Assembly (NCBI GenBank): GCA_035546895.1
Contig: DASZVW010000040.1
Coordinates: 1 to 36,857 of the forward strand
Origin: Polyangia bacterium
GTDB taxonomy: Bacteria; Myxococcota_A; Polyangia; Fen-1088
DNA: 36,857 nucleotides
Direction of reading: 5' to 3'
The position numbers and the translations under genes are program-made. The notes below the pieces were generated by a model. The model had not been told where the DNA came from and did not search any database. It saw only the letters and a program-made list of their open reading frames with translations. Positions within the stretch are counted from its first letter, which is position 1; every line of letters starts with the position of its first letter. This document shows positions 1,180 through 23,348 of this stretch, in pieces.

Positions 1180-1180
1180 A

Positions 1181-1649: not shown

Positions 1650-1665
1650 TGCAACGTTCGGACCA
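1650..1665 (-). promoter_or_regulatory. Candidate sigma-54 -24/-12 promoter, TGGTCCGAACGTTGCA
   Basis: GG and GC have the canonical spacing (consensus TGGCAC-N5-TTGCW). The -12 C at 1651 is 15 nt from ATG 1636. Confidence 0.55.
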
Positions 1666-1757
1666 CGGATGGGGATTGGCCGACGCCTCCTCTCGAGGCA
1701 GCCCCCGCAGTGGCTGCGCCCCGTCTCGACGGCCACGCAGGATCTGCGCGCCGCTCG

Positions 1758-3347
1758 CTAGGACGCTCGCCGTTCCGCCGCCGGCGAGATCCCGAAGTGC
1801 GTCAGCCGCGACAGGACGTCCTCGAGCGCGCCCGCGGGCGATCCCGCGGTGTCGACGGGAAGATGGGGCGTCGGATCGCCAGCGCCGCGCGGTTCGTAGT
1901 TCCGAAGAAACTGGTCGAGGAGTGATCCGCCGGCGTCCGACGTCGACGGCCCCGACTGACGCGCCGCCAACCGCGATCGCAGCACCTCCGAGGGGCAGCA
2001 GGCCTCCAGCCAGACGAAAGTTGCGTTCGCCGCGCGCGCCGCCTCCGCCGCGCGCCGCCGCCAGCGGGAGTTGGAGAACGTGGCGTCGAGGATGACGCCC
2101 CGACCGGCCTCGCGCACCTGCCCGGCCCGGCGGATGATCTCCTCGTAGGTCCGGTCTCGCGCCTCGAGGGTGTACGCGGCGGCGCCGGCGCGGGTGGTCG
2201 GCGGCAGGCCCGCCAGCACCTTCCTCGTCCGGTCCGAGCTGGCGACCGGGACGGCCAGCGCTCGACCGAGGCCGGCCGCGAGCGTGCTCTTGCCGCTGCC
2301 GATCGCCCCGCCGACGGCGATGAGGAACGGGCGATCGACCGGTTGGCCGGAAAAAGACCGGGCCAACCCGAAGCATCGCCGGGCCTCGTCTCGCTTGGCG
2401 GCGCGCAGCGCGCCGGGCGCCGTCGGGTCGCCGGCCACGAACGTCGCCACTTTGCCGCGCACCCAGGCCCGATACGACAAGTAGAAGTCGAGCACGCCGT
2501 AGAGGCCGTAGTCGTCGCTCGCCTCGGCGAAGCGGGCCAGGAAGCCGGCCGCGAGATCGGGGCGCCCCGCGGCTTCGAGCTCCATCGACAGGAAGGCCAG
2601 CTCCGCCGCGACGTCGCCGCAACGGAACCTTTCGTTGAACTCGACGCAGTCGATGACCACCGGCTCGAGGTAGCCGTCTCGCCCCGGGAGAAAGTAGACG
2701 TGCTCCAGCCGGAGGTCGCCGTGCCCTTCCCGGACGCGATCCTCCGTCAGGCGCGCGATGAAGCGATCGTGATGCCGTGTCAGCCGGCTCCGCTGAAAGG
2801 CCTGCACGTCGTCGAACGTCCCCCGCTCCAGCAGATCGCCGACGAACGGCGCCACCTGAGAGAAGTTCTCGTCGAGATTCCGGCCGAGCGCGGTGGGCGT
2901 TCCGAAGGCCGGCGCGGGCGGCGCCTCGTCGAAAAAGGCGATCAGCCGCTCGGCCAAGGTCGCCAGCAGCCGGGCGTCGAGCTGCCCCCGCGCCAGGAGC
3001 GCCGAGGCGCTCGCCTCGTCGGGCAGCCGTCGCATCCGCACCGCCCAGTCGACGATCGGCCCCTCCCCCACGATTCCGCAGCCCGAGGGCGTGCGGCGGA
3101 CGGGAACGACGCCCAAGTATACGTCGGGGGCCAGACGCCTGTTCAGCCGCACCTCTTCCTCGCAATCGAGACGGCGGGCCTCGATGGTGCGGAAGTCGAG
3201 GAATCCCAGGTCGACCGGACGCTTGACCTTCCAGACGTCTCGGTCGGTGATGAACACCCACGAGGCGTGAGTCGTCTCCAGTCGGACGTCGCCCGGATCG
3301 GGCTCGTACGCTTCGCGTCGCAGGAGCTCGCGTGCGATGTCGGGCAT
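1758..3347 (-). CDS. Bifunctional aminoglycoside-phosphotransferase-like / P-loop ATP-binding protein (Rv2004c-like)
   Basis: The N-terminal half has a kinase-like HGDLRLEHVYF catalytic-loop motif. The C-terminal half has a Walker A motif (GGAIGSGKSTLA). A GGAGG Shine-Dalgarno (SD) sequence lies 5 nt before ATG 3347. Confidence 0.85.
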   Translation of the reverse strand: MPDIARELLRREAYEPDPGDVRLETTHASWVFITDRDVWKVKRPVDLGFLDFRTIEARRLDCEEEVRLNRRLAPDVYLGVVPVRRTPSGCGIVGEGPIVDWAVRMRRLPDEASASALLARGQLDARLLATLAERLIAFFDEAPPAPAFGTPTALGRNLDENFSQVAPFVGDLLERGTFDDVQAFQRSRLTRHHDRFIARLTEDRVREGHGDLRLEHVYFLPGRDGYLEPVVIDCVEFNERFRCGDVAAELAFLSMELEAAGRPDLAAGFLARFAEASDDYGLYGVLDFYLSYRAWVRGKVATFVAGDPTAPGALRAAKRDEARRCFGLARSFSGQPVDRPFLIAVGGAIGSGKSTLAAGLGRALAVPVASSDRTRKVLAGLPPTTRAGAAAYTLEARDRTYEEIIRRAGQVREAGRGVILDATFSNSRWRRRAAEAARAANATFVWLEACCPSEVLRSRLAARQSGPSTSDAGGSLLDQFLRNYEPRGAGDPTPHLPVDTAGSPAGALEDVLSRLTHFGISPAAERRAS

Positions 3348-3370
3348 GCCGTCCTCCGCCTGACCGGCGA

Positions 3371-4087
3371 TCAGGCGGCAGCCGCCCCGGACCCGCCCTC
3401 CAGCGCGTCGCGAATCGCCGCCTTCAGGTTTAATTCGATCTGCCGGATCCGCTCCCCCGACACGGCCACGCGTCTCGCGACCGCGCGGAGCGGGATCGGC
3501 TCGTCGGCCAGCACCCGCTGCCGCAAGATCGTGAGGTCGCGGCCATTCAGGCGGCGTTCGAGACTCCTGGCCGCCGCGCGCGCCTTTCGGGTGAGCTCCG
3601 CCCTCTCGAGCCGGCGATCGGGCGCCGGGGCCGGATCCGCGATGAGCTCACCGAGGGGAGCACGGTCGCGCGCGACGGGTGCGTCCCAGGATACGTCCGT
3701 CGCACCGACGATACCGCGGAAGAAGGCCGCCCGTTCGGCCCGCGTCCGGACCGCACGCACGATCCGGACGTTATCCATCTTGTACTTGTGGATGTACGCC
3801 CGTATCCAAAAGGCAGCATAGGTCGAAAGCCGTGCCCCCTGCGCCGGATCGAAGCGGCGGAGCCCTTCGACGAGCCCCACACATCCCTCCGAGAAGAGAT
3901 CGTCGAAGCTCCGCCCGCGGGTCCTGTCGAGCTGGTGGGCGATCTTGGCCACCAGCCGCAGATTGGTCTCGACCAGCCTCTTCTCGATGCGCGGATCCTT
4001 GCTCTCGCGATATTCGACGATCAGCCGCAGTTGCTCGTCCGCGGGCAAGGGACGGGTGCCCGGATGACTCAAGAGTCGCTGGATCAT
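3371..4087 (-). CDS. Sigma-70 family alternative sigma factor, sigma-32 (RpoH)-like
   Basis: Region 2 reads DLFSEGCVGLVEGLRRFDPAQGARLSTYAAFWIRAYIHKY. It is followed by an RpoH-box-like segment (VRIVRAVRTRAERAAFFRG) and a region 4 HTH (PLRAVARRVAVSGERIRQIE). The ATG (4087-4085) overlaps the TGA (4086-4084) of the upstream ATPase. Confidence 0.85.
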   Translation of the reverse strand: MIQRLLSHPGTRPLPADEQLRLIVEYRESKDPRIEKRLVETNLRLVAKIAHQLDRTRGRSFDDLFSEGCVGLVEGLRRFDPAQGARLSTYAAFWIRAYIHKYKMDNVRIVRAVRTRAERAAFFRGIVGATDVSWDAPVARDRAPLGELIADPAPAPDRRLERAELTRKARAAARSLERRLNGRDLTILRQRVLADEPIPLRAVARRVAVSGERIRQIELNLKAAIRDALEGGSGAAAA

Positions 4088-6651
4088 GGTTCCGACCGAT
4101 GCAGCCCGGATGCCAACCGCATCCGCACTCCCGGCTTGTGAGCAGTCGCGTAGAACCACCGCTTCAGGATCTCGGCCGAGACCACATAGATGAGGACGAT
4201 AGCGGCGATGAGCAGCAGAACCATCGGCTGCGGCGGGGCGAGGCCGAGCGGCCGGGCGAGCGGGCTGAACGGGAGCAGCACGGTCGCGCCGAGACAGAAC
4301 GCGGTCGCCTTCAAGAGACTGCGCCCGGGCCGACTGCGGCCGAGCGGCAGCCGGCTCCTCACCACCAGGACCACCGAGGCGGCGGAGACGACCGACTCGA
4401 CGAACCAGGCCGTTCGGAAGGCGACCGGTCGCGCGCCGAAGAGGAACAACAACGCGCCGAACGTCAGGTAATCGAAGACCGAGCTCAAGAGGCCGAAGGC
4501 GACCATGAAGCGCCGCACGAGGCGGATGTCCCAGCGCCGGGGCCGATCGGTCGCCTCGTCGTCGACGTTGTCGGAGGCGATCGCCATCTCCGGAAGGTCG
4601 GTGAGCAGGTTGGTGAGCAGGACCTGCTTGGGGACCAGCGGCAGGAACGGAAGGAACAGCGATGCCCCCGCCATGCTGAACATGTTGCCGAAGTTCGCGC
4701 TGGTCGCCATGAACACATACTTGAGTGTGTTGGCGAAGGTGCGCCGCCCCTCGCGCAGCCCGCGGGCCACCACGCCCAGCTCCTTCTCCAGCAGCACGAT
4801 GTCGGCCGCCTCCCGCGCCACGTCGGCGGCGCCCGCCACCGAGATCCCCACGTCGGCGGCGTGGAGCGCTGGCGCGTCGTTGATGCCGTCGCCGATGAAC
4901 CCCACCACCTGGCCCGATCGGCGCAGCGCCGCCACGATCTGCTCCTTCTGGGTGGGCTCGACCTCCGCGAAGATGTCGACCGTGCGGCTCAGCGCGGGGA
5001 GCGCCGACGCCGCCGCCGTCCGCAGCTCGGCCCCGGTCTTGATGACCGCGTTCGGTAAGCCGATGGCCCGAGCGAGCGCCCGAGCGGCTACCGCGTTGTC
5101 GCCGGTGACGATCTTCACCGTGACACCCAGGCTCCCGAGCTCGTCCAGCGCCGCCCGGACGTCGGGCTTGGGCGCGTCGTGGAAGCGGACCAGCCCCGCG
5201 AAGGTCATCCCGCGTTCGTCTTCGCGGGTGACGCGCGCGGTTCCGGGGAGAGATCGATAGGCCACCGCGATGACGCGCAGGCCGTCCTCGCAAGACCGGT
5301 TGAACTCGGCCTCGATCGTGTCGCGCCGGCCGCCGAGGGGAACGACGCCGGCGGAGGTCTCGACGCTCTCGCAGGCCTCCAGCACCGTGGCGACCGCCCC
5401 CTTGGTGACGAGCAGACCGCCCTCGACGTCGAGGAGCACCGAGAGGCGGCGGCGGACGAAGTCGAAGGGGATCTCGTCGCGCTTCTGCGCCGGCTCGACC
5501 GGGCAGACTGCCAGCCCCCGCAGCGCCTCGTCGAGCGGGCTCGCGTAGCCGGTCTCGTGAGCCGCATTGAGGAAGGCGAGCCGGCGCACCCGCGCGCTCT
5601 CCCCGCCCTCGGCGTCGACCGCCCCCTCGAAGGTGAGCCGCCCCTCGGTCAAGGTGCCGGTCTTGTCGCAGCAGAGGACGGTCATGCTCCCGAGGTTCTC
5701 GATCGAGGCCAGCCGGCGGACGATGGTCTTCTCGGCGGCCATACGGGAGGCGCCGCGGGCTAGGTTGACCGCCACGATGGCCGGCAGGAGCTGCGGCGTC
5801 AGGCCGATCGCCAGCGTCAGCGAGAACATCAGCGACTCGAGCACCGGCCGATGGAAGGCCACGTTGGCGGCGAAGATGCCGAGCACGAGCAACAGCGTGA
5901 CCTCCATCAGGAGGTAGCCGAAGCGCCGCAGCCCCCGCTCGAAGTCGGTCTCCGGCGCGCGGGTGGCGACGTGGGCCGCGACGCGCCCCAGCTCCGTCCG
6001 CGGCCCCGTCCTGACGATGGCCATCCGCGCGGCGCCGCTGATGACGTGGGTCCCGAGGAACACCGCGCCCGTCCGTCGGGCGAGCGGCGTCTCCGCGGCG
6101 CTGGGGCCCGGCGCCTTCTCGGCCGGCTCGCTCTCGCCGGTCAGCGCCGCCTCGGAGACGAAGAGATCGCGCGCCTCCAAGAGGACGCCGTCACCAGGCA
6201 CGCTGCGGCCGGCGCTGAGCAAGGCGACGTCGCCGGGGACCACCTCGGCGATCGGGACCTCGCACGTCCGGCCGTCCCGCACCACCTGCGCCCGGGTCGC
6301 GACCTGGGCCAGGAGGCGCTGGACCGCCTGGGACGCGCCGTGCTCTTGCCAGACGCCCAGCGTCGCCGAGGCCGCCACGATGGCCAGCACGATGCCGGCA
6401 TCGCTGGCGTCGCCGAGAAAGAACGCCAGCACCGTCGCCGCGAGGAGGATGAGGACGATCGGGCTCCCGAGCTGGCCGACGATCAGCGCCGGCATGTCGG
6501 TCCGCCGGCGCGCAACCAGCAAGTTGGGACCCCTCTCGTGGAGGCGGCGCTCCGCCTCCTCCTGCCCCAGCCCCGAGGCTGCCGACCCCAGGCACTCGAG
6601 CACCTCGGCCGGCGCTTGCGCCCAGAAGGTGTCGCTCTCCCCGCCGCTCAC
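4084..6651 (-). CDS. mgtA: P-type ATPase, MgtA-like (type IIIB magnesium-importing family)
   Basis: Motifs seen: DLFVSEAALTGESEPAEK, the phosphorylation site CCDKTGTLTEG, TGDN and GDGINDAPAL. GTG start at 6651. The ion specificity is inferred from resemblance to the MgtA motif only. Confidence 0.85.
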   Translation of the reverse strand: MSGGESDTFWAQAPAEVLECLGSAASGLGQEEAERRLHERGPNLLVARRRTDMPALIVGQLGSPIVLILLAATVLAFFLGDASDAGIVLAIVAASATLGVWQEHGASQAVQRLLAQVATRAQVVRDGRTCEVPIAEVVPGDVALLSAGRSVPGDGVLLEARDLFVSEAALTGESEPAEKAPGPSAAETPLARRTGAVFLGTHVISGAARMAIVRTGPRTELGRVAAHVATRAPETDFERGLRRFGYLLMEVTLLLVLGIFAANVAFHRPVLESLMFSLTLAIGLTPQLLPAIVAVNLARGASRMAAEKTIVRRLASIENLGSMTVLCCDKTGTLTEGRLTFEGAVDAEGGESARVRRLAFLNAAHETGYASPLDEALRGLAVCPVEPAQKRDEIPFDFVRRRLSVLLDVEGGLLVTKGAVATVLEACESVETSAGVVPLGGRRDTIEAEFNRSCEDGLRVIAVAYRSLPGTARVTREDERGMTFAGLVRFHDAPKPDVRAALDELGSLGVTVKIVTGDNAVAARALARAIGLPNAVIKTGAELRTAAASALPALSRTVDIFAEVEPTQKEQIVAALRRSGQVVGFIGDGINDAPALHAADVGISVAGAADVAREAADIVLLEKELGVVARGLREGRRTFANTLKYVFMATSANFGNMFSMAGASLFLPFLPLVPKQVLLTNLLTDLPEMAIASDNVDDEATDRPRRWDIRLVRRFMVAFGLLSSVFDYLTFGALLFLFGARPVAFRTAWFVESVVSAASVVLVVRSRLPLGRSRPGRSLLKATAFCLGATVLLPFSPLARPLGLAPPQPMVLLLIAAIVLIYVVSAEILKRWFYATAHKPGVRMRLASGLHRSEP

Positions 6652-6678
6652 GCGCGAATCCTAACGCCCGCCGGACGA

Positions 6679-7053
6679 CTAAGCCGCCAGGGGAATCCCG
6701 CCCTCTTCCGGAACCGACGCCGGCGGCGTAGCGGGAAGCGACACGAGCCGGTGGACGCGGGGCGACGCGCTGAAGGGTCCCGCCGCGCAGGTGAACATGG
6801 TGACGCCCCAGGAGACCGCGACGACCTTCTCCAGCAGCGTCGAGGGGAAAATGAACCCGGTCAACGCCACCCAGCCGGCGACCATGCCGACCGCGACGGT
6901 GACACGCCGGCCGGCCAGCGAGAACGCCGACAGGACGACCGCCAGCGAACCGGCGATCAGGTCGTTGGCCGTGTGGGCGGGGCCGAGGGAGAGGATCAGC
7001 GCCGCGGTGGGCAACCAGGGGGCGATGAGGATGGCGAGCGCGCGAGAGAACAT
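6679..7053 (-). CDS. Small polytopic membrane protein (possibly SPW-repeat-like)
   Basis: 124 aa with 3-4 hydrophobic segments (ILIAPWLPTAALILSL, LIAGSLAVVLSAFSL, VGMVAGWVALTGFIF). An AGGAGG SD lies 5 nt before ATG 7053. The family assignment is weak. Confidence 0.55.
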   Translation of the reverse strand: MFSRALAILIAPWLPTAALILSLGPAHTANDLIAGSLAVVLSAFSLAGRRVTVAVGMVAGWVALTGFIFPSTLLEKVVAVSWGVTMFTCAAGPFSASPRVHRLVSLPATPPASVPEEGGIPLAA

Positions 7054-7084
7054 GGGGGCCTCCTATGGGTTCCCTCTCTCGCTG

Positions 7085-7100
7085 TGCAACCCGCGTTCCC
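7085..7100 (-). promoter_or_regulatory. Candidate sigma-54 -24/-12 promoter, GGGAACGCGGGTTGCA
   Basis: Correct GG-N10-GC spacing with a perfect TTGCA. It sits 32 nt upstream of ATG 7053, so the predicted leader contains the AGGAGG SD. It heads the membrane protein-mgtA-sigma-kinase gene string. Confidence 0.45.
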
Positions 7101-7206
7101 ATCGAAAGCCCGGCCCGGCGAATGGAAAGTCCGCATCCACTTCGTCGATGCCGCCCGCGCGCGCAGAAAGTGCGCGCCCGCCGCACGAACTCCGCATCCC
7201 CTAGCT

Positions 7207-7222
7207 TGGCATCGAGGTTGCG
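7207..7222 (+). promoter_or_regulatory. Candidate sigma-54 -24/-12 promoter, TGGCATCGAGGTTGCG
   Basis: Near-consensus match. The -12 C at 7221 is 14 nt from GTG 7235 of the CBS gene. Confidence 0.6.
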
Positions 7223-7234
7223 TTACCTCGGGCC

Positions 7235-7660
7235 GTGACCGCCCAACGCCCCACACTCCAATTCCCCGTCGTGCGCCAGTACATGACCGCCGCCCCGCAC
7301 ACCATCGGGCGGACCCGCTCTCTGTCCACCGCCCGTCGCCTGATGGTGGACCGGCACGTGCGCCACCTGCCGGTCCTGGACGGCGGCCGGGTGGTGGGCC
7401 TGCTCTCCGAACGCGACCTCTTCCTGGTGGAGTCGCTCCCCGGCGTCAACCCGACCGACGTTCGCGTCGAAGAGGCGATGGTCGAGGACGTCTTCACCGT
7501 GGCGCCCGACGCGCCGATCGGCGAGGCGGTCGAGACCATGATCGCGCGCAAGCTCGGGTCGGCGGTGGTCAGCGATGGCGAGCGGGTGGTCGGCGTCTTC
7601 ACCACCATCGACGCACTACAGGCGCTGCACGAGCTGCTCGAGGCGCCAGGAGGCGAATGA
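7235..7660 (+). CDS. CBS-domain pair protein
   Basis: Two CBS repeats: VRQYMTAAPHTIGRTRSLSTARRLMVDRHVRHLPVLDGGRVVGLLSERDL and VEEAMVEDVFTVAPDAPIGEAVETMIARKLGSAVVSDGERVVGVFTTID. Confidence 0.85.
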   Translation: MTAQRPTLQFPVVRQYMTAAPHTIGRTRSLSTARRLMVDRHVRHLPVLDGGRVVGLLSERDLFLVESLPGVNPTDVRVEEAMVEDVFTVAPDAPIGEAVETMIARKLGSAVVSDGERVVGVFTTIDALQALHELLEAPGGE

Positions 7661-8673
7661 CCATGTCGACCATCACCACAGAGCGTTCAAACCTCGAAGA
7701 ATCGATCCAGACGATCCTGGGCGGCGATCACCGGCGGCTAGAGAAGTCGTTCGAGTCGGTCGTCGCCGCCTCCACCTACTACGATCCGGAGGATCTGCGG
7801 GAGCTGTGGCAGAGGTTCGAACGGGAGCTCCTCGCCCACCTCGACGCCGAGGAGGCTCACGTCCTGCCGCTCTTCGGCCAGTCCGAACCGGAGGCGGCGC
7901 GCGAGCTCCTGGACCAGCACGTACGGATCCGGGAGCACCTCCTGACGCAGGCGATCGACCTCGATCTGCACAGCCTCAGACCCGAGCAGGTGAGAGACTT
8001 CATCGGCGAGCTGCGGACCCACGCGGCGCGGGAGGAGCTGCTCCTCTATCCCTGGGCGGCCCGGCAGCTCGGGAAGGTCACGGGCGCCCACCTGCGGCGA
8101 GCCCTGGCGGCCGGCAAGACGCCGCCCCTGCGCGAGCACGACTGGCGCATCGACGGCGAGCGCTCCGCGCTCAGCTTCTGGCTCCGGCACGTCGTCGTGC
8201 ACGAGATCAAGGGAACGTTCACCCGCTGGGGCGGGACCATCACCCTCGACGAGGTCGATCCCACCCGGTCTCGGGTGCGCGTGTGGGTCGATCTCGCCAG
8301 CATCGACACGGCCGATCCCGCGCGCGACGCCCAAGTCCGGTCGGCCGAGTTCTTCGACGTCGCGCGCTTCCCGCGCGCTGTCTTCGCCAGCACCGAGATC
8401 CGGCTGCCCGACGCCGGCAACCCCGTGGTCCGCGGCCGGCTCCGCCTGCACGGCGCCGAACGCGACGTCGATCTGGAGATCTTCCAGCGCGACGAGCACC
8501 TCGACCGCGAAGGGAACGAGCGTGCCGTCTACTCGGTGAAAGGGCGCCTCGATCGGCGGGACTTCGGGCTTCGCTGGAACCAGGATCTGGACGTCGGCGG
8601 GGTGGTGGTCGGCGACCAGGTGCAGATCGAGGCGCACGTCGAGGTGGTCCGCCGCAGGCGCGCGCGACCCTGA
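7657..8673 (+). CDS. Hemerythrin-like (HHE cation-binding) domain fused to a YceI-like domain
   Basis: The start ATG 7657 overlaps the CBS stop (ATGA). The N-terminal ~130 aa carry spaced H/E helices (DHRRLEKSF...HLDAEEAHVLP...HVRIREHL...HAAREELLLYP). The C-terminal part is YceI-like (FWLRHVVVHEIKGTFTRWGGTI...VDLASIDTADPARDAQVRSAEFFDVARFP...RLHGAERDV). Confidence 0.8.
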   Translation: MTMSTITTERSNLEESIQTILGGDHRRLEKSFESVVAASTYYDPEDLRELWQRFERELLAHLDAEEAHVLPLFGQSEPEAARELLDQHVRIREHLLTQAIDLDLHSLRPEQVRDFIGELRTHAAREELLLYPWAARQLGKVTGAHLRRALAAGKTPPLREHDWRIDGERSALSFWLRHVVVHEIKGTFTRWGGTITLDEVDPTRSRVRVWVDLASIDTADPARDAQVRSAEFFDVARFPRAVFASTEIRLPDAGNPVVRGRLRLHGAERDVDLEIFQRDEHLDREGNERAVYSVKGRLDRRDFGLRWNQDLDVGGVVVGDQVQIEAHVEVVRRRRARP

Positions 8674-8700
8674 GCCCGGGAAATCAGATGACCGGGCTCA
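8671..8700. terminator. 9-bp GC-rich hairpin between convergent genes (possible bidirectional terminator)
   Basis: TGAGCCCGG-gaaatcagatga-CCGGGCTCA. It begins in the stop codon of the hemerythrin-YceI gene. There is no U-tract on either strand. Confidence 0.3.
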
Positions 8701-9066
8701 TCCGTCGGCTCGGAGCTTTGGCCGCCGCTCCGGAGAGCATCCTGCAGGACGAAGAACCGCTCCGGCAGGACGGCGTTGAGCTCGTCTCCAGCCAGCGGAC
8801 GGGCGATCCCTGGCTCGTCGAAGATCTCCCCCGCCACCTTTGCCGCGCCATCGTAGTCCAGGACCACCACCCTCGACACGAGCTCGGGTACCTGCTCGGC
8901 GTGGCGCCGCATCTTGCTGGCGACGACCTGGCGAATCGCCGGCGAGATCCGGTCGGACGCCGCGAGCTCCGGGACCCCGCGGGATCGTGTGCGAGGGGCG
9001 GAGGAGGAGGGCGACCACGAGGGCGCAGCCCAACACGGCCGACGAAACGATGACGGTCCGCTTCAT
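8698..9066 (-). pseudogene. Small secreted protein of unknown function with an apparent frameshift near 8971-8985
   Basis: A good signal peptide (MKRTVIVSSAVLGCALVVALLL) is read in one frame. High third-position GC (GC3) and protein-like sequence then switch to another frame (VPELAASDRISPAIRQVVASKMRRHAEQVPELVSRVVVLDYDGAAKVAGEIFDEPGIARPL...). That second frame has no start codon upstream of ATG 8912. Confidence 0.4.
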
Positions 9067-9068
9067 GC

Positions 9069-11822
9069 TCAGATCTTCCTTTCTGCGCGGATCACGCCGT
9101 CTTCCGCGGCGCCCACGGTGAATCCGAGCCGGGCACAGAGGCGCTGCATGTGTACGTTGGCCTCCAGGACGTCGGCGTAAATCCGTGCGAGGCCCTCCTG
9201 CCGAGCGACCTCGACCAGGCGCGAGAGGAGCTGGCCCCCCACCCCCTGCCCCTGCCAGGGATCGGCCACCAGGAGCGAGAACTCGGCCCCCGTCGCACCC
9301 CGTATGCGTTCGCGGCTCAGGCGGCCAAGCGCGATGATCTGCCGCTGGCCCGGGGACTGCCGCTCGGCCACCAGCGCCAGCTCGCGGTCGTAGTCGGTAA
9401 AGCAGATCCGGACCAGCCGCTCGTGGGCGGTCCGTTCGCCGAGCTCGAGCCCCGCCAGGTAGCGCATGCGGACGCTCTGCTCACTCAGCGTCTGGTGGAA
9501 AGCGACCATCGCCGGCTCGTCCTCGGGTCGGATCGGACGGATCGCGATCGGCGAACCGTCGCGCAGCTCGCCGTGCGAGACGTACGCCGCCGGGTAGGGC
9601 CGGATGGCCGGCCTCGGCAGGCGCTCGTCCGGCGTGTCGGGATCGGCCAGGACCACGCGGGCGTCCAGGGCCACGAGCTCGCCGGCGGACACGAGCAATG
9701 GGTTGACGTCGATCTCCCGGATGCGCGGCTGCTCGATCACGAGGTCGCCGAAGCGAACCAACAGGGCTGCGAGCGCCTCGAGGTCGACCGAGGCCCGGCC
9801 GCGGACGCCCCGCAGGGCCTGGTAGATCTGCGTCTGCTCCATGGCGCGCCGGGCCAGCGTGGTGTTGAGCGGCGGCAGGGCCAGCGCGCGATCCCGGAAC
9901 ACCTCGACCAGCTCGCCGCCGGTGCCGAACAAGATCACCGGCCCGAGCTGCGCGTCGATGCTGCTCCCCAGGATCAGCTCGTAGCCGCCGTGCCGTTCGA
10001 CGCAGGGCTGCACCGTCACGCCGAGGAAGCTTCCGGCCCCCACCTTCGCCGTCACGCTCTCCCGGATGCCGCGAAAGGCGGTTGCCACGGCATTTGCGTC
10101 GCCGAGTCCGAGTCGGACGCCCCCCACGTCGGTCTTGTGGGTCACCGTCCGCGACCAGAGCTTCACCGCGACCGGGAACCCCAACGTTCGCGCCGCCTCT
10201 ACCGCCTCCGCCTCGTCGCGCGCGACCCGGATCGGGGTCACCGGGATCCCGTAGCTGGCGAGCAGCGCCTTCGACTCCTGCTCATCGAGCAGGGTCCGCC
10301 GCTCGGCGTGCGCTGCGCCGATGATCGCCCGCGCGCCAGCCGGCTGCGTCTCGCCGTCGGGCTGCCGCACCGGCGTCTCGTAGAGGCCGCGGAGGTTGTA
10401 GGCGTAGCGCCACATCTGGCAGAAGGTCCGCGCCGCGTCGTCGGGGAACTGGAAGCTCGGGATCCCGGCGCGGTTGAGGATGTCGGCCCCGGCCGCCACG
10501 TCGGCGCCCCCCATCCAGCTCGCCAGGACCGGCTTCCCTTCGATGTGCGCGTGCTTGGCGAGCGCCTCCGCCGTGAGCGTCGGATCGGTCATGTCCTGCG
10601 GCGTGAGGATCGCGAGCAGCCCGTCACTGGCGCCGTCGTCCGCGGCGAGCTGCAGCGCGCTCGCGTAGCGCGCCGGATCGGCGTCGCCCAGGATGTCGAG
10701 CGGGTTGGCGTGGCTCCAGGCGGCCGGCAGGATCGCGTCGAGGCGAGCGAGCGTCTCGCCGGAGAGCGCCGCCAGTTCGCCCCCGCCCGCCACCAGCGCG
10801 TCGGTGGCCAGGACGCCGGGGCCCCCCGCGTTGGTGACGATGGTCAGCCGCCCGCTCCGGGGCCGCGGTTGGCGGCCGAGAACGTCCGCCAGCCGGAAGA
10901 CGTCGCCGATGTCGGTGACCCGCAGGACCCCGCTGCGCCGGAAGGCGGCGTCCAGCACCTCGTCGGACCCGGTGAGCGCGCCGGTGTGCGAGGCGGCCGC
11001 CTTGCTGGCCGCCGCCGAACGGCCCGCCTTGATGACGATGATCGGCTTCGTGAGCGCCACCTCGCGCGCCGCCGACAGGAACGCCCGCGCATCGCCGATC
11101 GACTCCATGTAGAGCACGATGGCGCGCGTCCGTGGATCGTCGCCCAGGTAGTCGATGAGGTCGCCCCAACCGACATCGAGCATTGAACCGAGCGACACGA
11201 AGGCGCTGAACCCCACGCGCTCGCGCAAGCTCCAATCGAGGATCGCCGTCAGCAGCGCGCCGCTCTGGCTGAGGAAGGCCACGTTCCCCGAGAGGGCCAT
11301 GCCGGCGGCGAAGGTGGCGTTGAGCCCCGTCAGCGGGCTCATCACGCCGAGGCAGTTCGGACCCACGACCCGCATCCCGCCCCGCTGCGCCTCCGCGCGC
11401 ACCTGCCGCTCCAGCTCGGCGCCGGCGGGACCTGTCTCGTGAAAGCCGGCAGAGATGATCACCGCAGCGGGTACCGCCCGGTCCACGCACTCGCCGATCA
11501 CCTTAGGCACTGTGGCGGCCGTGGTCACGACGACCGCCAGGTCGACCGCGCCCGGCACGTCGGCGATCGAACGGTAGGCCTTGATTCCGAGCACGCTGTC
11601 GCGCTTCGGGTTGACCGGATAGACGGTGCCGCCAAAGGGGCTGGAGATCAGGTTGTGGAGCAACGTTCGCCCGACGCTGCGGGGCGTTTCGCTGGCCCCG
11701 ATGACCGCCACCGAGCGGGGGCGGAAGAAGGGATCGAGCGGGTGTTGCTTCGCCTGCTTGAGGACGTCGTGGGCCAGGCCCGTCGTGCGCCCGTCTGCTT
11801 GCGCCGGAGGAGGAGTTGGCAT
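9069..11822 (-). CDS. pat: Pat/PatZ-type protein lysine acetyltransferase (ADP-forming acetyl-CoA synthetase-like domains plus a C-terminal GNAT)
   Basis: The N-terminus has a CoA-binding motif ([19 protein letters not shown]...VYPVNPK). Succinyl-CoA-synthetase-like and ATP-grasp regions follow. The C-terminal GNAT reads [49 protein letters not shown]. The start is set at ATG 11822; the ORF extends to 12011. Confidence 0.85.
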
Positions 11823-11835
11823 CGAGCCGTTCGAG

Positions 11836-11851
11836 TGCAAGCGTTGCGCCA
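11836..11851 (-). promoter_or_regulatory. Candidate sigma-54 -24/-12 promoter, TGGCGCAACGCTTGCA
   Basis: Near-consensus match. The -12 C at 11837 is 15 nt from ATG 11822 of pat. Confidence 0.6.
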
Positions 11852-11858
11852 CTGCACG

Positions 11859-11874
11859 TGGCCAGGATCTTGCC
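11859..11874 (+). promoter_or_regulatory. Candidate sigma-54 -24/-12 promoter, TGGCCAGGATCTTGCC
   Basis: Correct spacing. The -12 C at 11873 is 14 nt from ATG 11887. It lies back-to-back with the pat element, 7 bp away. Confidence 0.55.
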
Positions 11875-11886
11875 TCGTCGAGAAGC

Positions 11887-12195
11887 ATGAAAACCTCCAA
11901 GCCGCTGCTGCGCATTGTCTGCGTCGGGGTTGCACTCCTCTCCGGCTGCGCGACGGCGCCCCGGGCGCGTCCCGAATCAGCGCCGCGCGTCCCTGACTCC
12001 GCGCCCGACAAGGTCGCAGCTCAGCGCGCCGCCGCTGGTCTTCACCTCGAGGAGGAGGACGACCGGTGGGGATTCGAAGCGGCGCGCGAGCTGAAGCAGC
12101 GGAAAGAACAGAAGACGGCGGCGCAGCAGCCCCCGCCTCCCGCCGGTCCCGGCCCCGTCGACCTCGAACAGCCCGCCGACGCCGGCGTCCGCTGA
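11887..12195 (+). CDS. Small lipoprotein of unknown function
   Basis: Signal peptide with lipobox ([21 protein letters not shown]). The mature part is charged and Pro-rich. GC3 is high. Confidence 0.6.
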
Positions 12196-12297
12196 GTCCC
12201 CAGATGTGTCGTGAGCGTGCGAAGCAACTTCTGCGGGGCTCGTTGCGACTCGCGCAGGTTTTGCGCGGACAGGCGGGTTAGGCCCGATGGTTCTGCC

Positions 12298-12313
12298 TGG
12301 CCCGTCGCTTGAA
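12298..12313 (+). promoter_or_regulatory. Weak sigma-54-like element, TGGCCCGTCGCTTGAA (GA replaces the -12 GC)
   Basis: It has the same geometry as the stronger sites: 14 nt from the -12 position to GTG 12326. It shares GTCGAGA downstream of the -12 with the lipoprotein site. Confidence 0.3.
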
Positions 12314-12325
12314 TAGGTCGAGACC

Positions 12326-13462
12326 GTGCGCGGAATTCTCAAGATCGCCTACAAGCTCCTGGTCAACGACAAGGGGAAGTTCGCCGCGCTGCTGATGGGG
12401 ATCACCTTCGCGGTGTTCCTGATGATCCAGGTGACCTCGATGTTCGCCGGGATGATGCTGAAGGCCTCGGCGACGGTCACCAACACCGGCGCCAAGATGT
12501 GGGTGATGGATCGTGCGGTCACGAACGTGGCCAGCAGCATCCCGATGCCCGACTACGTGCTCGATGCGGTCCGCAGCATGTCGGGCGTCCGCTACGCCGT
12601 GCCGCTCTACTCGGGCGCCGGACTCGCGCGGTTGCGGAGCGGCGCCTATCAGGCAGTGACGGTGCTGGGGCTCGACGACACCAGCCTGTTCGGACGCCCC
12701 AAGCTGATAGATGGCCGCATCGAGGACATCTACGCGGAGAACGGCTTCATCGTCGTCGCCGACGAGGAGCTCCCAAAGCTCGACAACCCCAAGATCGGCA
12801 CCGAGTTCGAGATCAACGACAACCGCGGCGTGATCGTCGGCCTGGCCAAGGTCCCCGCCAGCGGCCTGTTCGGGATCCCGACGCTCTACACGACCTTCAG
12901 TCGGGCGGTCCAGTACATCCCGTCGATGCGCTACACCGTCTCCTACATCCTCGTCGAGCCGACGAGCGACCGGACGGTCCCGCACATCAAGCAGGAGGTC
13001 GCCAAGCTCGGCTACGAGGCGCTCACCGAGCAAGAGTTCATTGACAAGATCACCACCTTCTACAAGTACCGGACGGGGATGGGGATGAACATCCTCATCA
13101 TGACGCTGATCAGCTTCATCGTCGGCCTCTCGATCTCGGGGCAGACGTTCTACACCTTCACGCTCGAGAACCTTGACAAGTTCGGGGCGCTCAAGGCCAT
13201 CGGCGCCAAGCGAAACGAGCTGGTGGCGATGATCCTGCTTCAGGCGGGCGTCACCGCCATCGCGGGGTACGGCCTCGGGATCGGGCTCTGCGCGCTGCTC
13301 ATCGCGGTCGCCAAGCTACGGCTCCCCGACTACGCCTCGGTCATCACCTTCGGCAACCTCGGCGTGGCGTTCGGCATGGTGCTGGTGATCGCCGGGATCT
13401 CCAGCTACATCGCCGTCCGCAAGGTGCTGAAGATCGAACCCTTCGAGATCTTCCGGAGCTGA
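12326..13462 (+). CDS. devC: ABC exporter permease, DevC/FtsX-like family
   Basis: 378 aa. An N-terminal TM helix is followed by a large periplasmic domain and three C-terminal TM helices with the FtsX motif region (FGALKAIGAKRNELVAMILLQAG). GTG start. Confidence 0.85.
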   Translation: MRGILKIAYKLLVNDKGKFAALLMGITFAVFLMIQVTSMFAGMMLKASATVTNTGAKMWVMDRAVTNVASSIPMPDYVLDAVRSMSGVRYAVPLYSGAGLARLRSGAYQAVTVLGLDDTSLFGRPKLIDGRIEDIYAENGFIVVADEELPKLDNPKIGTEFEINDNRGVIVGLAKVPASGLFGIPTLYTTFSRAVQYIPSMRYTVSYILVEPTSDRTVPHIKQEVAKLGYEALTEQEFIDKITTFYKYRTGMGMNILIMTLISFIVGLSISGQTFYTFTLENLDKFGALKAIGAKRNELVAMILLQAGVTAIAGYGLGIGLCALLIAVAKLRLPDYASVITFGNLGVAFGMVLVIAGISSYIAVRKVLKIEPFEIFRS

Positions 13463-13464
13463 CC

Positions 13465-14158
<694 letters not shown>

Positions 14159-16694: not shown

Positions 16695-16698
16695 AGCG

Positions 16699-17660: not shown

Positions 17661-17672
17661 GGCATCCGGAGA

Positions 17673-17688
17673 TGCAATCGGCGCACCG
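17673..17688 (-). promoter_or_regulatory. Candidate sigma-54 -24/-12 promoter, CGGTGCGCCGATTGCA
   Basis: Correct spacing with a perfect TTGCA. The -12 C at 17674 is 14 nt from ATG 17660 of phoU. Confidence 0.5.
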
Positions 17689-17735
17689 ACCTCTCGGAAG
17701 CCGGGACGACCGCCGATTTGTGAGTCGAGCCGACT

Positions 17736-18479: not shown

Positions 18480-18488
18480 GGATCTCCT

Positions 18489-18947: not shown

Positions 18948-18968
18948 AGCGGCTCCGAGCAGCAACGT

Positions 18969-18984
18969 TGCAGCGCCTGTGCCA
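18969..18984 (-). promoter_or_regulatory. Candidate sigma-54 -24/-12 promoter, TGGCACAGGCGCTGCA
   Basis: Perfect TGGCAC with a CTGCA -12. It sits 22 nt upstream of ATG 18947, so the predicted ~11-nt leader contains the GGAG. Confidence 0.6.
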
Positions 18985-19100
18985 GCAAATGCCCTCCCCC
19001 GAGCGGAGGTTCATCGAACGACGCCAGCAATCGGTGCATGGGTGCCGACCTCTCCCGCAAAGTTTTCGCGGTTCCGCACGACGTTGAGCCGCCTCTGCGC

Positions 19101-19116
19101 CGGCACGGCGGATGCT
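19101..19116 (+). promoter_or_regulatory. Candidate sigma-54 -24/-12 promoter, CGGCACGGCGGATGCT
   Basis: Correct GG/GC spacing. The -12 C at 19115 is 17 nt from ATG 19132. Confidence 0.4.
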
Positions 19117-19131
19117 CCGTAAGCGACCGAG

Positions 19132-19815: not shown

Positions 19816-20276
19816 ACGACTCATCGAAGCGCGTCAGCCTCTCCAGCGAGGCCCGGAACGCCATCCTGGCCCAGCACGACGAGCTGCGGACCCTGACCGC
19901 GAAGGTCGGTGAGCTATTGCATCTCGGCTCGGCCAGCGCATCGGCGATCGAGTCAGTCCGCGCCGAGGCCCGGGCCCTCTATGCGCGGCTCGACGAGCAC
20001 ATGCGTTTCGAGGAGAGCACCCTCGAAGCCGCACTGAGTGACGTCATCGGTCGCGGCCCGGAGCTGCACGCCGAGATCGAACGGGACCACGAGCATCAGC
20101 GCGCCACCCTCGCCGCCGCCATCGCGGAGATCGGACAGACCGGACCTTCGCGCGAGGAGCTCGTTCAGGGCATCCGGCGCTTCATCGATCTCCTGCTGCG
20201 TGACATGGATGAAGAAGAGCAGATCCTGCTCGACGCCGAGGTCGACGCGCTGTTGACCGACGGTGAGGGCGGCTGA
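19812..20276 (+). CDS. Hemerythrin-like (HHE) domain protein
   Basis: 154-aa helical protein with spaced H/E residues (QHDELRTL...LDEHMRFEES...ERDHEHQRATL...DMDEEEQILL). Its ATG overlaps the nitroreductase stop (ATGA, 19812-19815). Confidence 0.7.
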   Translation: MNDSSKRVSLSSEARNAILAQHDELRTLTAKVGELLHLGSASASAIESVRAEARALYARLDEHMRFEESTLEAALSDVIGRGPELHAEIERDHEHQRATLAAAIAEIGQTGPSREELVQGIRRFIDLLLRDMDEEEQILLDAEVDALLTDGEGG

Positions 20277-20337
20277 ACGAACCTGCACCACAGCGCGCGC
20301 CGCCCCGCGGTCGATGGCGCGAACCGGCTTGACCCAC

Positions 20338-21618: not shown

Positions 21619-21630
21619 GCCCCATCGAGG

Positions 21631-21646
21631 ATCACGTCGCGTGCCA
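21631..21646 (-). promoter_or_regulatory. Weak sigma-54-like element, TGGCACGCGACGTGAT (perfect -24, degenerate -12)
   Basis: Same 14-nt geometry to ATG 21618 as the stronger sites. The conserved GC of the -12 is missing. Confidence 0.25.
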
Positions 21647-21779
21647 GGTGGTGCGTCGCACCTCCCCACGCGCGAGCGGCACCGGACGCAGTCGCACAGT
21701 TTGCGCCGCGTCGGGGAGCGCGACGCATATTCTGCAGATCGCTCGCTCCCTCACTCTCGTCGACGGCGTCGAAGCGCAA

Positions 21780-21795
21780 GGGAACATTCCTTGCA
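21780..21795 (+). promoter_or_regulatory. Candidate sigma-54 -24/-12 promoter, GGGAACATTCCTTGCA
   Basis: It has the same GGGAAC-N5-TTGCA form as the 7085-7100 site. It lies about 80 nt upstream of the CheB-like start. Confidence 0.45.
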
Positions 21796-21874
21796 CGCGG
21801 TCTGGCCGACCATTCGAGCCAGCCCCGACCTTCCGGAAACCTACCCGTTCGGATTGTGAACCGAGAAGGGGTAT

Positions 21875-22564
21875 GTGATGCGAACGTCCCGTCGAAGACG
21901 GCTCCAGCCTGACGTGAGCAAGACAAACGTGCCGCCTCGACACCTGATCGCGATCGTGGGCTCGAGGGGAGGCCTGAAGCCCTTGGTGACGATCGTTCGC
22001 GACCTGCCGCTCGATCTGGATGCGGCCGTCGTCGTGTTGATTCACCGAGGCGCTACAACGAAAAGCCATCTCGCGGAGATCCTCTCACGTGCCACCTCCT
22101 TGCCGGTCGCGTTCGCGGTCGACGGCGAGCGCCTCGAGAGAGGCCGGATCTACGTCGTACCACCTGGCGACCGCCACGCCCTGATTCAAGGCCGAACGAT
22201 CCGTCTCGTCGCTGCCCCTCGGGTCCACTATCATCGCCCGGCGGGCGATCCTCTCCTCTATTCGGCCGCCGCCGCGTTCGGCCCCGACGCCATCGGCGTG
22301 ATCTTGAGCGGGATGGGACGAAATGGCGAGGCTGGGGTCGCCGCCATCAAGCAAGGCAGGGGCAAAGTGTTCGTGCAGTCCGTCGTCGAGGCCGAGTACC
22401 CCAGCATGCCGAGACACGCCATGGCCGCAGCCGAGCCAGATGCGTGCCTGATGGCCGCCGAGATTGCGCCGCGGCTGGCGGCTCTGTGCGCGCCTGCAGT
22501 TGTCCCGTTCGAGGCGGCGGACAGAGCTGAGCGCCCACGTCGTCGCGAGCACAGGTCGGCTTGA
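21875..22564 (+). CDS. CheB-type methylesterase-domain protein without a receiver domain
   Basis: IAIVGSRGGLKPL (Ser motif), VVVLIHRG (His motif) and GVILSGMGRNGEAGVAAIKQGRGKVFVQ...PSMPRHA. A GAGAAGGGG SD precedes GTG 21875 / ATG 21878. Confidence 0.8.
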   Translation: MMRTSRRRRLQPDVSKTNVPPRHLIAIVGSRGGLKPLVTIVRDLPLDLDAAVVVLIHRGATTKSHLAEILSRATSLPVAFAVDGERLERGRIYVVPPGDRHALIQGRTIRLVAAPRVHYHRPAGDPLLYSAAAAFGPDAIGVILSGMGRNGEAGVAAIKQGRGKVFVQSVVEAEYPSMPRHAMAAAEPDACLMAAEIAPRLAALCAPAVVPFEAADRAERPRRREHRSA

Positions 22565-22688
22565 GATCCCCGCCCGCCAGATGACGCAGACGCGTCCGAA
22601 GGCGTTGCCCGGCCGACCCGGAGGAGACCTGAAACCGAGCCACTCTGGCGGACCGCCTGAAGCGGATAACGATTGGACGGCGGCGCGC

Positions 22689-22886
22689 TCAGGTCGTTTT
22701 GAGTTCAGGCGTTAGCGCGAGCGTCGCTCGGCCCAGGCTCTCTTCTATTCGGGAGAGGTGTTTCTCGACTTCGGCGTCGACTGCTCCGACGCCGTCGAGA
22801 TGCTTGCGAAGAAGATAGACGGATGTGCGGGCCACCGCGAGCCCCTCGCGTACGACGCGCACCCATTCATCCGACGACGACGCCAT
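22689..22886 (-). CDS. Hypothetical small helical protein (65 aa)
   Basis: ATG-initiated ORF with moderate GC3 in the lower-GC islet. I recognise no family. Confidence 0.3.
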   Translation of the reverse strand: MASSSDEWVRVVREGLAVARTSVYLLRKHLDGVGAVDAEVEKHLSRIEESLGRATLALTPELKTT

Positions 22887-23104
22887 CAGTCCAAAGCCTT
22901 GCGAGGTGACGATCGCTCATCGGCGACGACATCTCGGCTCACTGTTCGCGACATCGTCGACTTCACCTTACGCCTCGTTCGACGCGACATACACCTTACG
23001 AGGAACGGCAATCGACCTCGTACAATGTCTTACGCCCGGCTCGCGATTACGGGTTCACCTGAGACACCCGATCTCCCTGATGAGCGGGCTTTCACGCGAT
23101 GGAT

Positions 23105-23308
23105 CTACGCACGCTTGCCGCGGCGAATCATCAAGTGAAGGAGGCAGGGCCCCCACAGTCCCATCGCTATCGGCAAAAGCCCAATGACCGCGACGACACG
23201 CCCGCCTATCCCCCTCGCTCCCAAGCCGAGATGAATGAGTACGACGCCCAGCGCGACCCGCAGCCCACGACCGAAGGGACGCTCCATGAACTCGAAGACT
23301 TTGTTCAT
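23105..23308 (-). CDS. DUF2892 (YgaP-like) small membrane protein
   Basis: Two TM helices and a C-terminal GLWGPCLLHLMI motif resembling the conserved G-x-C-P-x-Y region of DUF2892. GGAG lies 8 nt before ATG 23308. Confidence 0.6.
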   Translation of the reverse strand: MNKVFEFMERPFGRGLRVALGVVLIHLGLGARGIGGRVVAVIGLLPIAMGLWGPCLLHLMIRRGKRA

Positions 23309-23332
23309 CGTCTTTTCTCCGTCACGGATAAT

Positions 23333-23348
23333 TGCAACGGCGATGCCG
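23333..23348 (-). promoter_or_regulatory. Candidate sigma-54 -24/-12 promoter, CGGCATCGCCGTTGCA
   Basis: Correct spacing with a perfect TTGCA. It sits 25 nt upstream of ATG 23308, so the predicted leader contains the GGAG. Confidence 0.5.

Follow-up and report, generated by a model that had tools for sequence, protein, structure and literature searches.

A dense array of putative sigma-54 promoters with NmpR-type activator boxes in an uncultured myxobacterium

The closest described system to the locus treated here is the regulon controlled by NmpR in Myxococcus xanthus. An NtrC-like enhancer-binding protein (EBP), NmpR belongs to the oxygen-sensing phosphorelay NmpRSTU (McAllister et al., 2025, J Bacteriol, PMC11841059), and its regulon comprises 7 promoters and 23 genes, including a CBS operon, a universal stress protein (USP) gene, hemN-hemerythrin and a P-type ATPase together with the cbb3 oxidase. 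The NmpR site, GCGCA-N5-TGCGC, was defined by electrophoretic mobility shift assays together with lacZ reporters whose expression depended on the box as well as on the sigma-54 site, and the preferred gap between two boxes is 14–15 bp, equivalent to 29–30 bp centre to centre (PMC11841059). The present analysis concerns a stretch of 36,857 nt (the window) from a Polyangia bacterium (assembly GCA_035546895.1, contig DASZVW010000040.1), in which 16-bp elements of the sigma-54 (RpoN) -24/-12 type stand in front of many genes. The region from 1 to 23.4 kb, plus at least 9 kb to the left of it, is read as a clustered sigma-54 regulon of the NmpR type in an uncultured myxobacterium (Polyangia/Myxococcales), with a probability of about 85%. 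Read in this way, it belongs to an already known kind, the NmpR/sigma-54 oxygen-limitation regulon, which is here much expanded, physically clustered and extended to many new gene families.

The window has a G+C content of about 70%, and its gene map was built from third-position G+C and from matches to Pfam and NCBIfam. The map agrees with the gene labels of the original prediction, which had been made from the letters of this DNA, as well as with the gene calls of a public contig that is nearly identical (GCA_964568375.1, CAZMRV010000306.1). The original prediction had listed twelve 16-mers resembling TGGCAC-N5-TTGCW, and all 12 of 12 are present letter for letter, with the coordinates and strands as listed. 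This consensus was scanned with up to two mismatches in the window and in dinucleotide shuffles, both of the whole window and of its intergenic DNA alone. The whole window yielded 23 matches, compared with 8.8 ± 2.8 in its shuffles (0 of 100 reached 23), and the intergenic DNA (2,554 nt, 64.6% G+C) yielded 10, compared with 0.76 ± 0.85 (0 of 2,000 reached 10, and the maximum was 5). All ten intergenic matches point at the start of a neighbouring gene, and coding DNA holds 12 other matches across about 68 kb of strand. The claim of a dense and correctly oriented sigma-54-like array is thus upheld by ten gene-facing intergenic matches where 0.76 were expected. The claim made for a T-containing core holds in part: the four exact cores that had been counted are all recovered, with the actual spacing TGG-N8-TTGC and not with TGG-N9-TTGC as had been written. 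The N8 spacing gives 6 exact matches in the window, with 2.3 expected; the N9 spacing was rejected (4 matches, with 2.6 expected, none of which is one of the listed sites). The accompanying caution that the bare motif is common by chance was well placed, as GG-N9-TGC occurs 146 times, with 126 expected.

A position matrix trained solely on sites of other genomes (loci L001, L087 and L088, described below) was scored over 73,684 positions of the window. Eleven of the twelve listed sites, along with a thirteenth that was absent from the list (4115–4100 on the minus strand, TGGCATCCGGGCTGCA) and stands before a sigma factor gene, fall within the top 23 of these positions. The sole listed site that the matrix finds weak is that of the CheB-like gene (21780–21795, rank 118), whose GGAAC variant recurs in accepted sites (that of the SPW gene, and as TGGAAC in L001 and L087). 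On the other hand, the devC and adaptor (MFP) sites, which the original prediction had labelled weak, take ranks 3 and 5, and the label does not hold for them. Twelve or thirteen transcription units of the window are served, including the internal site before the sigma gene.

On the near-identical contig the array runs at least 9 kb past the left end of the window, where two CBS genes, a YceI gene (followed by that of glycogen phosphorylase) and PPDK have further sites in front of them, which brings the total to at least 17 promoters in about 33 kb. The right end of the array is at 23.35 kb, and beyond it come a stretch of lower G+C and unrelated ATP-grasp/transglutaminase operons. The gene set of the window comprises three USPs, CBS proteins, two hemerythrins, a nitroreductase, an MgtA-type ATPase, a Pat-like acyl-CoA synthetase/acetyltransferase, PhoU, a VIT transporter, a DevCAB-OMF exporter and an RpoH-like sigma factor, to which the left flank adds PPDK, YceI, glycogen phosphorylase and more CBS proteins. 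Matches of the nitroreductase and CBS proteins to solved structures are generic. The window and the public contig are 99.96% identical over 1–14088 and 99.39% over 25868–36857 (67 substitutions), a divergence that suggests another strain or a mosaic assembly.

The composition of the element was examined in an alignment of 24 sites from the window, the left flank and L001. GG is present in 24 of 24 and T(-14)G(-13) likewise in 24 of 24, C(-12) is present in 21 of 24, and T, C, A and C are favoured around the GG. The presence of GG and TGC one helical turn apart is the hallmark of the RpoN consensus. Since the two blocks start 11 bp apart, they do not fit the geometry of sigma-70-family promoters; sigma-70-type -10 hexamers were searched for between the motif and the start codons and none was found, nor are there -10/-35 hexamers flanking the motif. 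An RNA-level motif was also considered and was dropped because the two blocks are unable to pair with each other. The identification of the -24/-12 elements as putative sigma-54 promoters is supported by these features.

Upstream of the promoters lies a palindrome, GCGCA-N5-TGCGC with an A+T-rich spacer, which was found by inspection of the upstream DNA and by targeted scans, was derived from the window alone and is identical to the published NmpR consensus. The intergenic DNA of the window holds six such boxes with at most one mismatch, with 0.36 expected in what is a post hoc test. As the whole window shows no enrichment when two mismatches are allowed (83 matches, with 87 expected), only intergenic boxes with at most one mismatch are informative. 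The box recurs, exact or with one mismatch and at the same distances, in sequence that had not been used to derive it, namely the left flank (CBS, YceI and PPDK promoters), L001, L087 and L088. Many box centres fall at -40, counted from the T of TGG (CBS, devC and nitroreductase in the window, YceI and CBS in the flank), and other boxes are paired, 30–31 bp apart, as in front of the USP pair (-78/-48), where the spacing of 30 bp matches the published gap. The boxes of the USP orthologues are placed at -78/-48 in L087 and at -77/-47 in L088, and the promoter is spaced 12 nt from the start codon in both. Paired boxes are clear for the window USP pair, the left flank (the second CBS gene and PPDK), L001, L087 and L088, and several window promoters have one good box. 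The one-mismatch boxes at 1705, 1735, 11910 and 21692 keep an intact GCA-N5-TGC core; phoU has a weak NmpR-like box only (2 mismatches, at -143), and the DUF2892 promoter has two degenerate boxes, at -61 and -91. Taken together, the assignment of the window boxes as putative NmpR-type activator sites is supported.

The closest relatives by Pat protein are uncultured Myxococcales/Polyangia with 72% (L001) and 68% identity. Four further genomes have the elements in front of orthologous genes (orthologous promoters were seen at loci L001, L087, L088, L094, L095 and L091), with different spacers and flanks. In L001, the same elements stand before the orthologues of the lipoprotein, hemerythrin-YceI, CBS and devC genes; the CBS orthologue has TGGAACGCAAGTTGCT followed by 12 nt and an ATG, and the devC orthologue keeps the TTGAA variant, with a GTG start at 13 nt. 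The pat orthologue of L087 has CGGCTCGTCGCTTGCA followed by 13 nt and an ATG, with the same MPTP N-terminus, and the lipoprotein orthologues carry the same element at 13 nt in L001 and at 12 nt in L087. The promoter pattern is absent in Pat-anchored loci of other phyla, of other Polyangia (L002, L033) and of Sorangium (L044, L058).

The islands of the relatives also contain regulator genes. At the end of the L001 island lies the C-terminal part of an EBP (WPGNVRELENVVERAVVL, followed by HTH_8-type sequence), and the closest database relatives of this EBP lie in islands L087 and L088. These islands have the same promoters and boxes, and genes for AAA_33, USP, hemerythrin and cytochrome c' proteins are found in them as well, to which L087 adds Pat and YceI. 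The L088 EBP has the domains REC, Sigma54_activat, AAA_lid_14 and HTH_8, and that of L087 has the same without a called REC; in both loci the EBP is split or truncated by frameshifts. The name of the L088 contig suggests a long-read assembly. The EBP of L088 adjoins a REC-PAS-HisKA hybrid kinase, a protoglobin-HisKA kinase and a single receiver protein, whose predicted architectures are those of NmpS, NmpU/AfGcHK and NmpT. In L087, the kinase adjacent to the EBP shows HisKA/HATPase only (a fragment), and protoglobin-HisKA and REC proteins are also present; a protoglobin kinase is found at L093, in the same genome as L001. A search with NmpU-like proteins returned relatives from Polyangia and Nannocystis and none from M. 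xanthus, and one Myxococcus locus was recovered via a published primer sequence. The original prediction had read the region as a sigma-54 stress regulon, and this is supported by the invariant positions, the conservation, the activator box, the EBP in the islands of relatives and the 11-bp geometry; "stress" can be narrowed to oxygen limitation of the NmpR type.

In the proposed mechanism, sigma-54 RNA polymerase would bind the -24/-12 element and, by itself, be unable to open the DNA. The palindrome GCGCA-N5-TGCGC would be bound by an NmpR orthologue, a response regulator of the NtrC type, either as one box or as two boxes 30 bp apart, centred about 40–110 bp upstream of the -24 element, and the phosphorylated activator would oligomerise and open the promoter using ATP. 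By analogy with M. xanthus and Anaeromyxobacter, the signal would be falling oxygen, which would be read by a heme protoglobin kinase of the NmpU/AfGcHK type and relayed through a hybrid kinase, and the output would be a dormancy-like gene set. For this organism, we infer sigma-54 dependence, NmpR dependence and the oxygen signal alike.

A further property of the array is the distance from promoter to start codon. Of the 13 window promoters, 8 (those of the USP pair, sigma, CBS, pat, lipoprotein, devC, phoU and adaptor genes) have a TTGCW that ends exactly 12–13 nt ahead of the start codon; for the nitroreductase the distance is 15 nt. A Shine-Dalgarno (SD) sequence is found at no site with a distance of 15 nt or less and at every site with 21 nt or more (GGAGG, GGAG, GAAGGAAGGGA or similar purine-rich sequence); SD-led genes are otherwise normal in this DNA. 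The start codons are anchored, being either the first in the open frame or fixed by conserved N-termini (MTAATKRILVATDFS compared with MTSSLKRILVATDFS, MPTP for Pat, and the signal peptides of the lipoproteins). The spacing was also surveyed at 291 non-redundant sigma-54-like sites accompanied by an NmpR box, taken from this window plus Myxococcota loci that had been reached through their NmpR- or NmpU-like genes; a start codon (ATG or GTG) stands at offset 12 in 21.3% of them, at offset 13 in 10.7% and at other offsets in about 3%. The same arrangement is seen in Myxococcus sp. CA023 (L213, 2040–2055, minus strand), before the orthologue of mxan_3966, a USP gene that is an experimentally validated NmpR target (PMC11841059): TGGCACGGCTCTTCCA is followed by 13 nt and the annotated ATG, and an exact NmpR box lies upstream. 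The -12 element of this L213 site lacks the G, and a second in-frame ATG is located 6 codons downstream.

The sigma-54 holoenzyme starts transcription about 11 nt after the -12 C, and starts some 11–13 nt downstream of the GC would be expected of such promoters. Similarly, differential RNA sequencing of C. jejuni placed the sigma-54 motif 8–13 nt upstream of start sites. Because of this start distance, a spacing of 12–13 nt would have transcripts begin at the start codon or 2–3 nt before it, and the mRNAs of this class would be leaderless. We lean, with a confidence a little above even, towards the view that in this Myxococcota lineage the sigma-54 promoters of the NmpR regulon are hard-wired for leaderless mRNAs, so that one activator-dependent step would set both transcription and SD-independent translation. 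No description of sigma-54-driven leaderless mRNAs as a class was found in full-text searches of the literature, and the spacing of 12–13 nt is not discussed in the NmpR paper (PMC11841059).

Other explanations of the element itself fare poorly. The 16-mers might be operators, that is a direct repeat TGGC-N7-TTGC with 11-bp spacing bound for example by an OmpR/PhoB-type regulator, in a 5' untranslated region or over a sigma-70-type core. The consensus does formally resemble a direct repeat one helical turn apart, and neither the activator nor the sigma factor has been observed in this genome, but every informative position of the RpoN consensus is matched, including the invariant GG and TGC, and the motif is not flanked by -10/-35 hexamers. 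Moreover, the coupled upstream site is proven to bind a sigma-54 activator, mutation of the sigma-54 site abolished expression in M. xanthus (PMC11841059), and EBP genes are embedded within the homologous islands, all of which makes operators very improbable. Even less credit is given to the idea that the RpoH-like sigma factor encoded within the island (3371–4087) drives the island, with the motif as that factor's promoter. A sigma-70-family gene does lie within the island, beside an AAA_33 kinase-like gene; however, sigma-70-family promoters need 16–18 bp between hexamers, the motif precedes the sigma gene itself, and the L087 and L088 islands have the same promoters and no such sigma gene. 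As for chance matches to a loose consensus in GC-rich DNA, the abundance of the bare motif and the several sites with 2–3 mismatches would speak for them, but they are already refuted by the intergenic excess over shuffles, the exact spacing to start codons and the conservation of the elements in other genomes.

Several points weigh against the reading as an NmpR-type sigma-54 regulon with leaderless mRNAs. Three sites are without the C of the -12 GC (devC and MFP in the window, and the TTGAA of devC in L001). Only degenerate boxes precede USP-VIT/nitroreductase, DUF2892 and phoU, and none precedes the sigma and lipoprotein genes (for the sigma-gene promoter at 4100–4115, no NmpR box lies within 170 bp); in M. 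xanthus, NmpR often failed to bind sites with mismatches of this kind (PMC11841059). Neither rpoN nor an AAA+ EBP gene is found among the window's open reading frames (ORFs) scanned with Pfam. For the EBP this is as had been predicted, and the 100-aa ORF at 35868–36170 (minus strand) proved to be, also as predicted, an orphan with HTH_8 (Fis-type) only, which lies beside a TetR gene and is no part of an EBP. Myxococcota carry rpoN. Among the best 120 matches, no relative of the EBP lies on a 105-kb contig, so the activator gene is probably on another contig or missing from the metagenome-assembled genome. The EBP of the relatives would be the orthologue of M. xanthus NmpR by its DNA site and neighbourhood and not by protein comparison. 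Regarding the leaderless class, two of its members start with GTG (CBS and devC), which is a poor leaderless start in E. coli, an AAGGAG lies between promoter and ATG at the left-flank YceI site, and mxan_4236 of M. xanthus has an SD-containing leader (AGGAG). These last exceptions speak for the alternative that the sigma-54/NmpR promoters are real and that the mRNAs are not leaderless, because transcripts start elsewhere or come from extra upstream promoters, the spacing then reflecting promoter-proximal regulation or intergenic compaction. This alternative is possible and on balance unlikely: the start codons are fixed, the SD sequence is absent or present according to distance without exception in the window, the sigma-54 motif lies 8–13 nt before mapped starts elsewhere, and the sharp peak at offsets 12–13 across many genomes is as predicted by selection for a 5'-terminal start codon.

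Table 1. Putative -24/-12 promoter elements and activator boxes in the window. Distances of promoters run from the end of TTGCW to the start codon; rank, position in the foreign-trained matrix scan.
Feature	Position	Strand	Sequence	Distance	Remarks
-24/-12, USP pair (1636→748)	1650..1665	-	TGGTCCGAACGTTGCA	13 nt to ATG 1636	no SD; rank 1
Box S2, USP promoter	1705..1719		CCGCAGTGGCTGCGC	centre 48 bp upstream of T of TGG	1 mismatch
Box S1, USP promoter	1735..1749		ACGCAGGATCTGCGC	30 bp centre-to-centre from S2	1 mismatch
-24/-12 inside 3' end of P-type ATPase gene	4100..4115	-	TGGCATCCGGGCTGCA	12 nt to ATG 4087 of RpoH-like sigma gene	rank 7
-24/-12, operon SPW-membrane protein, MgtA-type ATPase, sigma, AAA_33 protein	7085..7100	-	GGGAACGCGGGTTGCA	31 nt to ATG 7053	SD GGAGG; rank 12
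Box common to divergent SPW and CBS promoters	7161..7175		GCGCAGAAAGTGCGC	-40 from CBS TGG, -69 from SPW GGG	exact
-24/-12, CBS and hemerythrin-YceI operon	7207..7222	+	TGGCATCGAGGTTGCG	12 nt to GTG 7235	no SD; rank 16
-24/-12, pat (ADP-forming acyl-CoA synthetase/GNAT) and downstream 178-aa ORF	11836..11851	-	TGGCGCAACGCTTGCA	13 nt to ATG 11822	
-24/-12, lipoprotein gene	11859..11874	+	TGGCCAGGATCTTGCC	12 nt to ATG 11887	
Box for pat, inside lipoprotein coding sequence	11910..11924		GCGCATTGTCTGCGT	67 bp upstream of pat TGG	1 mismatch; only good box for pat
Box, devC	12252..12266		GCGCAGGTTTTGCGC	centre -40 from devC TGG	exact
-24/-12, operon devC, ABC ATPase, HlyD, OMF, DUF2061	12298..12313	+	TGGCCCGTCGCTTGAA	12 nt to GTG 12326	rank 3
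-24/-12, phoU	17673..17688	-	CGGTGCGCCGATTGCA	12 nt to ATG 17660	rank 10
-24/-12, USP and VIT genes	18969..18984	-	TGGCACAGGCGCTGCA	21 nt to ATG 18947	SD GGAG; rank 23
Degenerate box between divergent USP and nitroreductase promoters	19055..19069		CCGCAAAGTTTTCGC	centre -40 from nitroreductase CGG	2 mismatches
-24/-12, nitroreductase and hemerythrin	19101..19116	+	CGGCACGGCGGATGCT	15 nt to ATG 19132	no SD; rank 6
-24/-12, RND/MacA-type adaptor (MFP)	21631..21646	-	TGGCACGCGACGTGAT	12 nt to ATG 21618	rank 5
Box common to MFP and CheB promoters	21692..21706		TCGCACAGTTTGCGC	-54 (MFP), -82 (CheB)	1 mismatch
-24/-12-like, CheB-like methylesterase gene	21780..21795	+	GGGAACATTCCTTGCA	82 nt to ATG 21878	SD present; rank 118; weakest candidate
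-24/-12, small DUF2892/YgaP-like membrane protein	23333..23348	-	CGGCATCGCCGTTGCA	24 nt to ATG 23308	SD GGAG; rank 4

Some features of the individual genes deserve mention. The RpoH-like sigma factor (238 aa, with NCBIfam matches below all cut-offs) is paired at 1758–4087 (minus strand) with a 529-aa protein that has a C-terminal AAA_33 kinase-like domain only; AAA_33 proteins adjoin USP genes in L087 and L088 as well, without a sigma factor. The ATG of the sigma gene overlaps the stop codon of the ATPase gene (ATGA, 4084–4087), which suggests possible translational coupling. In the public record, the pat start is called at ATG 11888 (939 aa) and the lipoprotein gene (11887–12195) is uncalled (L081 2201); orthologues (MPTP in L087, MPLAHD in L001) and the position of the promoter favour ATG 11822 (917 aa) as the probable start. 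The pat and lipoprotein promoters are placed back-to-back, with their -24 elements 7 bp apart and no activator box between, and two sigma-54 holoenzymes could hardly occupy both at the same time. The two promoters are 126 bp apart in L087, with two NmpR boxes between, and the equivalent pair of L001 is about 240 bp apart. Directly downstream of pat, a 178-aa ORF with a signal-peptide-like start (8529–9065, minus strand) is called in the public record; it has no Pfam match, overlaps the convergent hemerythrin-YceI gene by about 145 nt and shows mixed codon-position G+C, and a frameshift or a wrong call is possible.

To the right, the stretch 22565–25142 has a G+C content of 61–66% compared with about 70%. 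It contains 540 bp in which no convincing gene is seen, along with genes for a PD40 beta-propeller protein and an AbiEii/DUF2204-type nucleotidyltransferase. Its left edge is where the promoter array ends, and it may be foreign DNA. From 26447 to 35864, genes for circularly permuted ATP-grasp, alpha-E and transglutaminase proteins follow in two sets, along with that of a 1109-aa transglutaminase-DUF2126 protein, a known conserved neighbourhood that is unrelated to the array. Inside the ATP-grasp/alpha-E gene, the site at 27413–27428 (minus strand, TGGTGCGCAGGTTGCA) has the second-best sigma-54 score in the window; it lies 81 nt before the ATG of a transglutaminase gene (27331), has no NmpR box and could be an internal promoter for another activator or a chance match.

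Compared with the NmpR regulon of M. xanthus, the locus shares the identical box, at some promoters the pairing of boxes with a gap of 14–15 bp, -24/-12 promoters and the target families CBS, USP, hemerythrin and P-type ATPase, and in the relatives an NtrC-type EBP beside predicted protoglobin and hybrid kinases and a receiver protein. The M. xanthus promoters are scattered over the genome, whereas here 23 kb hold at least 13 and 33 kb at least 17, several of those in the window with one box or a degenerate box only. The P-type ATPase is of the MgtA type here and of the Cu type in M. xanthus; cbb3 oxidase, hemN and pilR of the M. xanthus regulon were not seen in the present array, and the regulator genes are outside the window. 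New families compared with M. xanthus are the Pat-like synthetase/GNAT, DevCAB-OMF, PhoU, VIT, nitroreductase, the RpoH-like sigma factor, PPDK and glycogen phosphorylase. If the reading is right, a concrete regulator and signal (NmpR and oxygen limitation) can be assigned to an island of 30-plus "stress" genes, and the known kinds of genes under an NmpR-type system are roughly doubled, with protein acetylation, metal and phosphate homeostasis, an exporter, carbon-reserve enzymes and a second sigma factor as added functions.

A functional parallel is offered by DosR/DevR of M. tuberculosis and OsdR of Streptomyces, with which the locus has in common USPs, a CBS protein, a nitroreductase and a P-type ATPase. 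The signal logic would be similar as well, with O2, NO or CO sensed by heme kinases and the signal relayed to a response regulator. The authors of the M. xanthus study draw the same DosR parallel for the USPs (PMC11841059). The window CBS protein gives a weak match to Rv2626c (E = 3e-7). DosR/DevR differs in that its regulator is of the NarL type, its promoters are of the sigma-70 type and its palindrome is another one, and, to our knowledge, Actinobacteria have no sigma-54. The likeness is therefore best taken as an analogy of function and gene content, and not of mechanism or membership. It points to a dormancy-like programme comparable to that of mycobacterial DosR, which would be built on sigma-54.

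With the canonical sigma-54 systems (glnAp2/NtrC, nifH/NifA), the array shares the GG/GC one helical turn apart, the consensus TGGCAC-N5-TTGCW and tandem dyad-symmetric activator sites. It differs from them in that its activator sites are close, with the centre of the proximal box often only some 65 bp ahead of the expected start, and in that the promoters abut the start codons, whereas the classical sigma-54 promoters (glnAp2, nifH) have SD-containing leaders. This fixed promoter-to-start spacing is the part that specialists would not have expected, and if the mRNAs are indeed leaderless it would represent an undescribed coupling of enhancer-dependent transcription to SD-independent translation. 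The nearest likeness in this respect is with the leaderless promoters of Deinococcus-Thermus and Actinobacteria, which also lack an SD sequence and keep a core element close to the start codon at a constant distance. In those bacteria the element is a sigma-70-type -10 box that abuts the reading frame, whereas here it would be the -12 part of a sigma-54 promoter, which depends on an activator that uses ATP.

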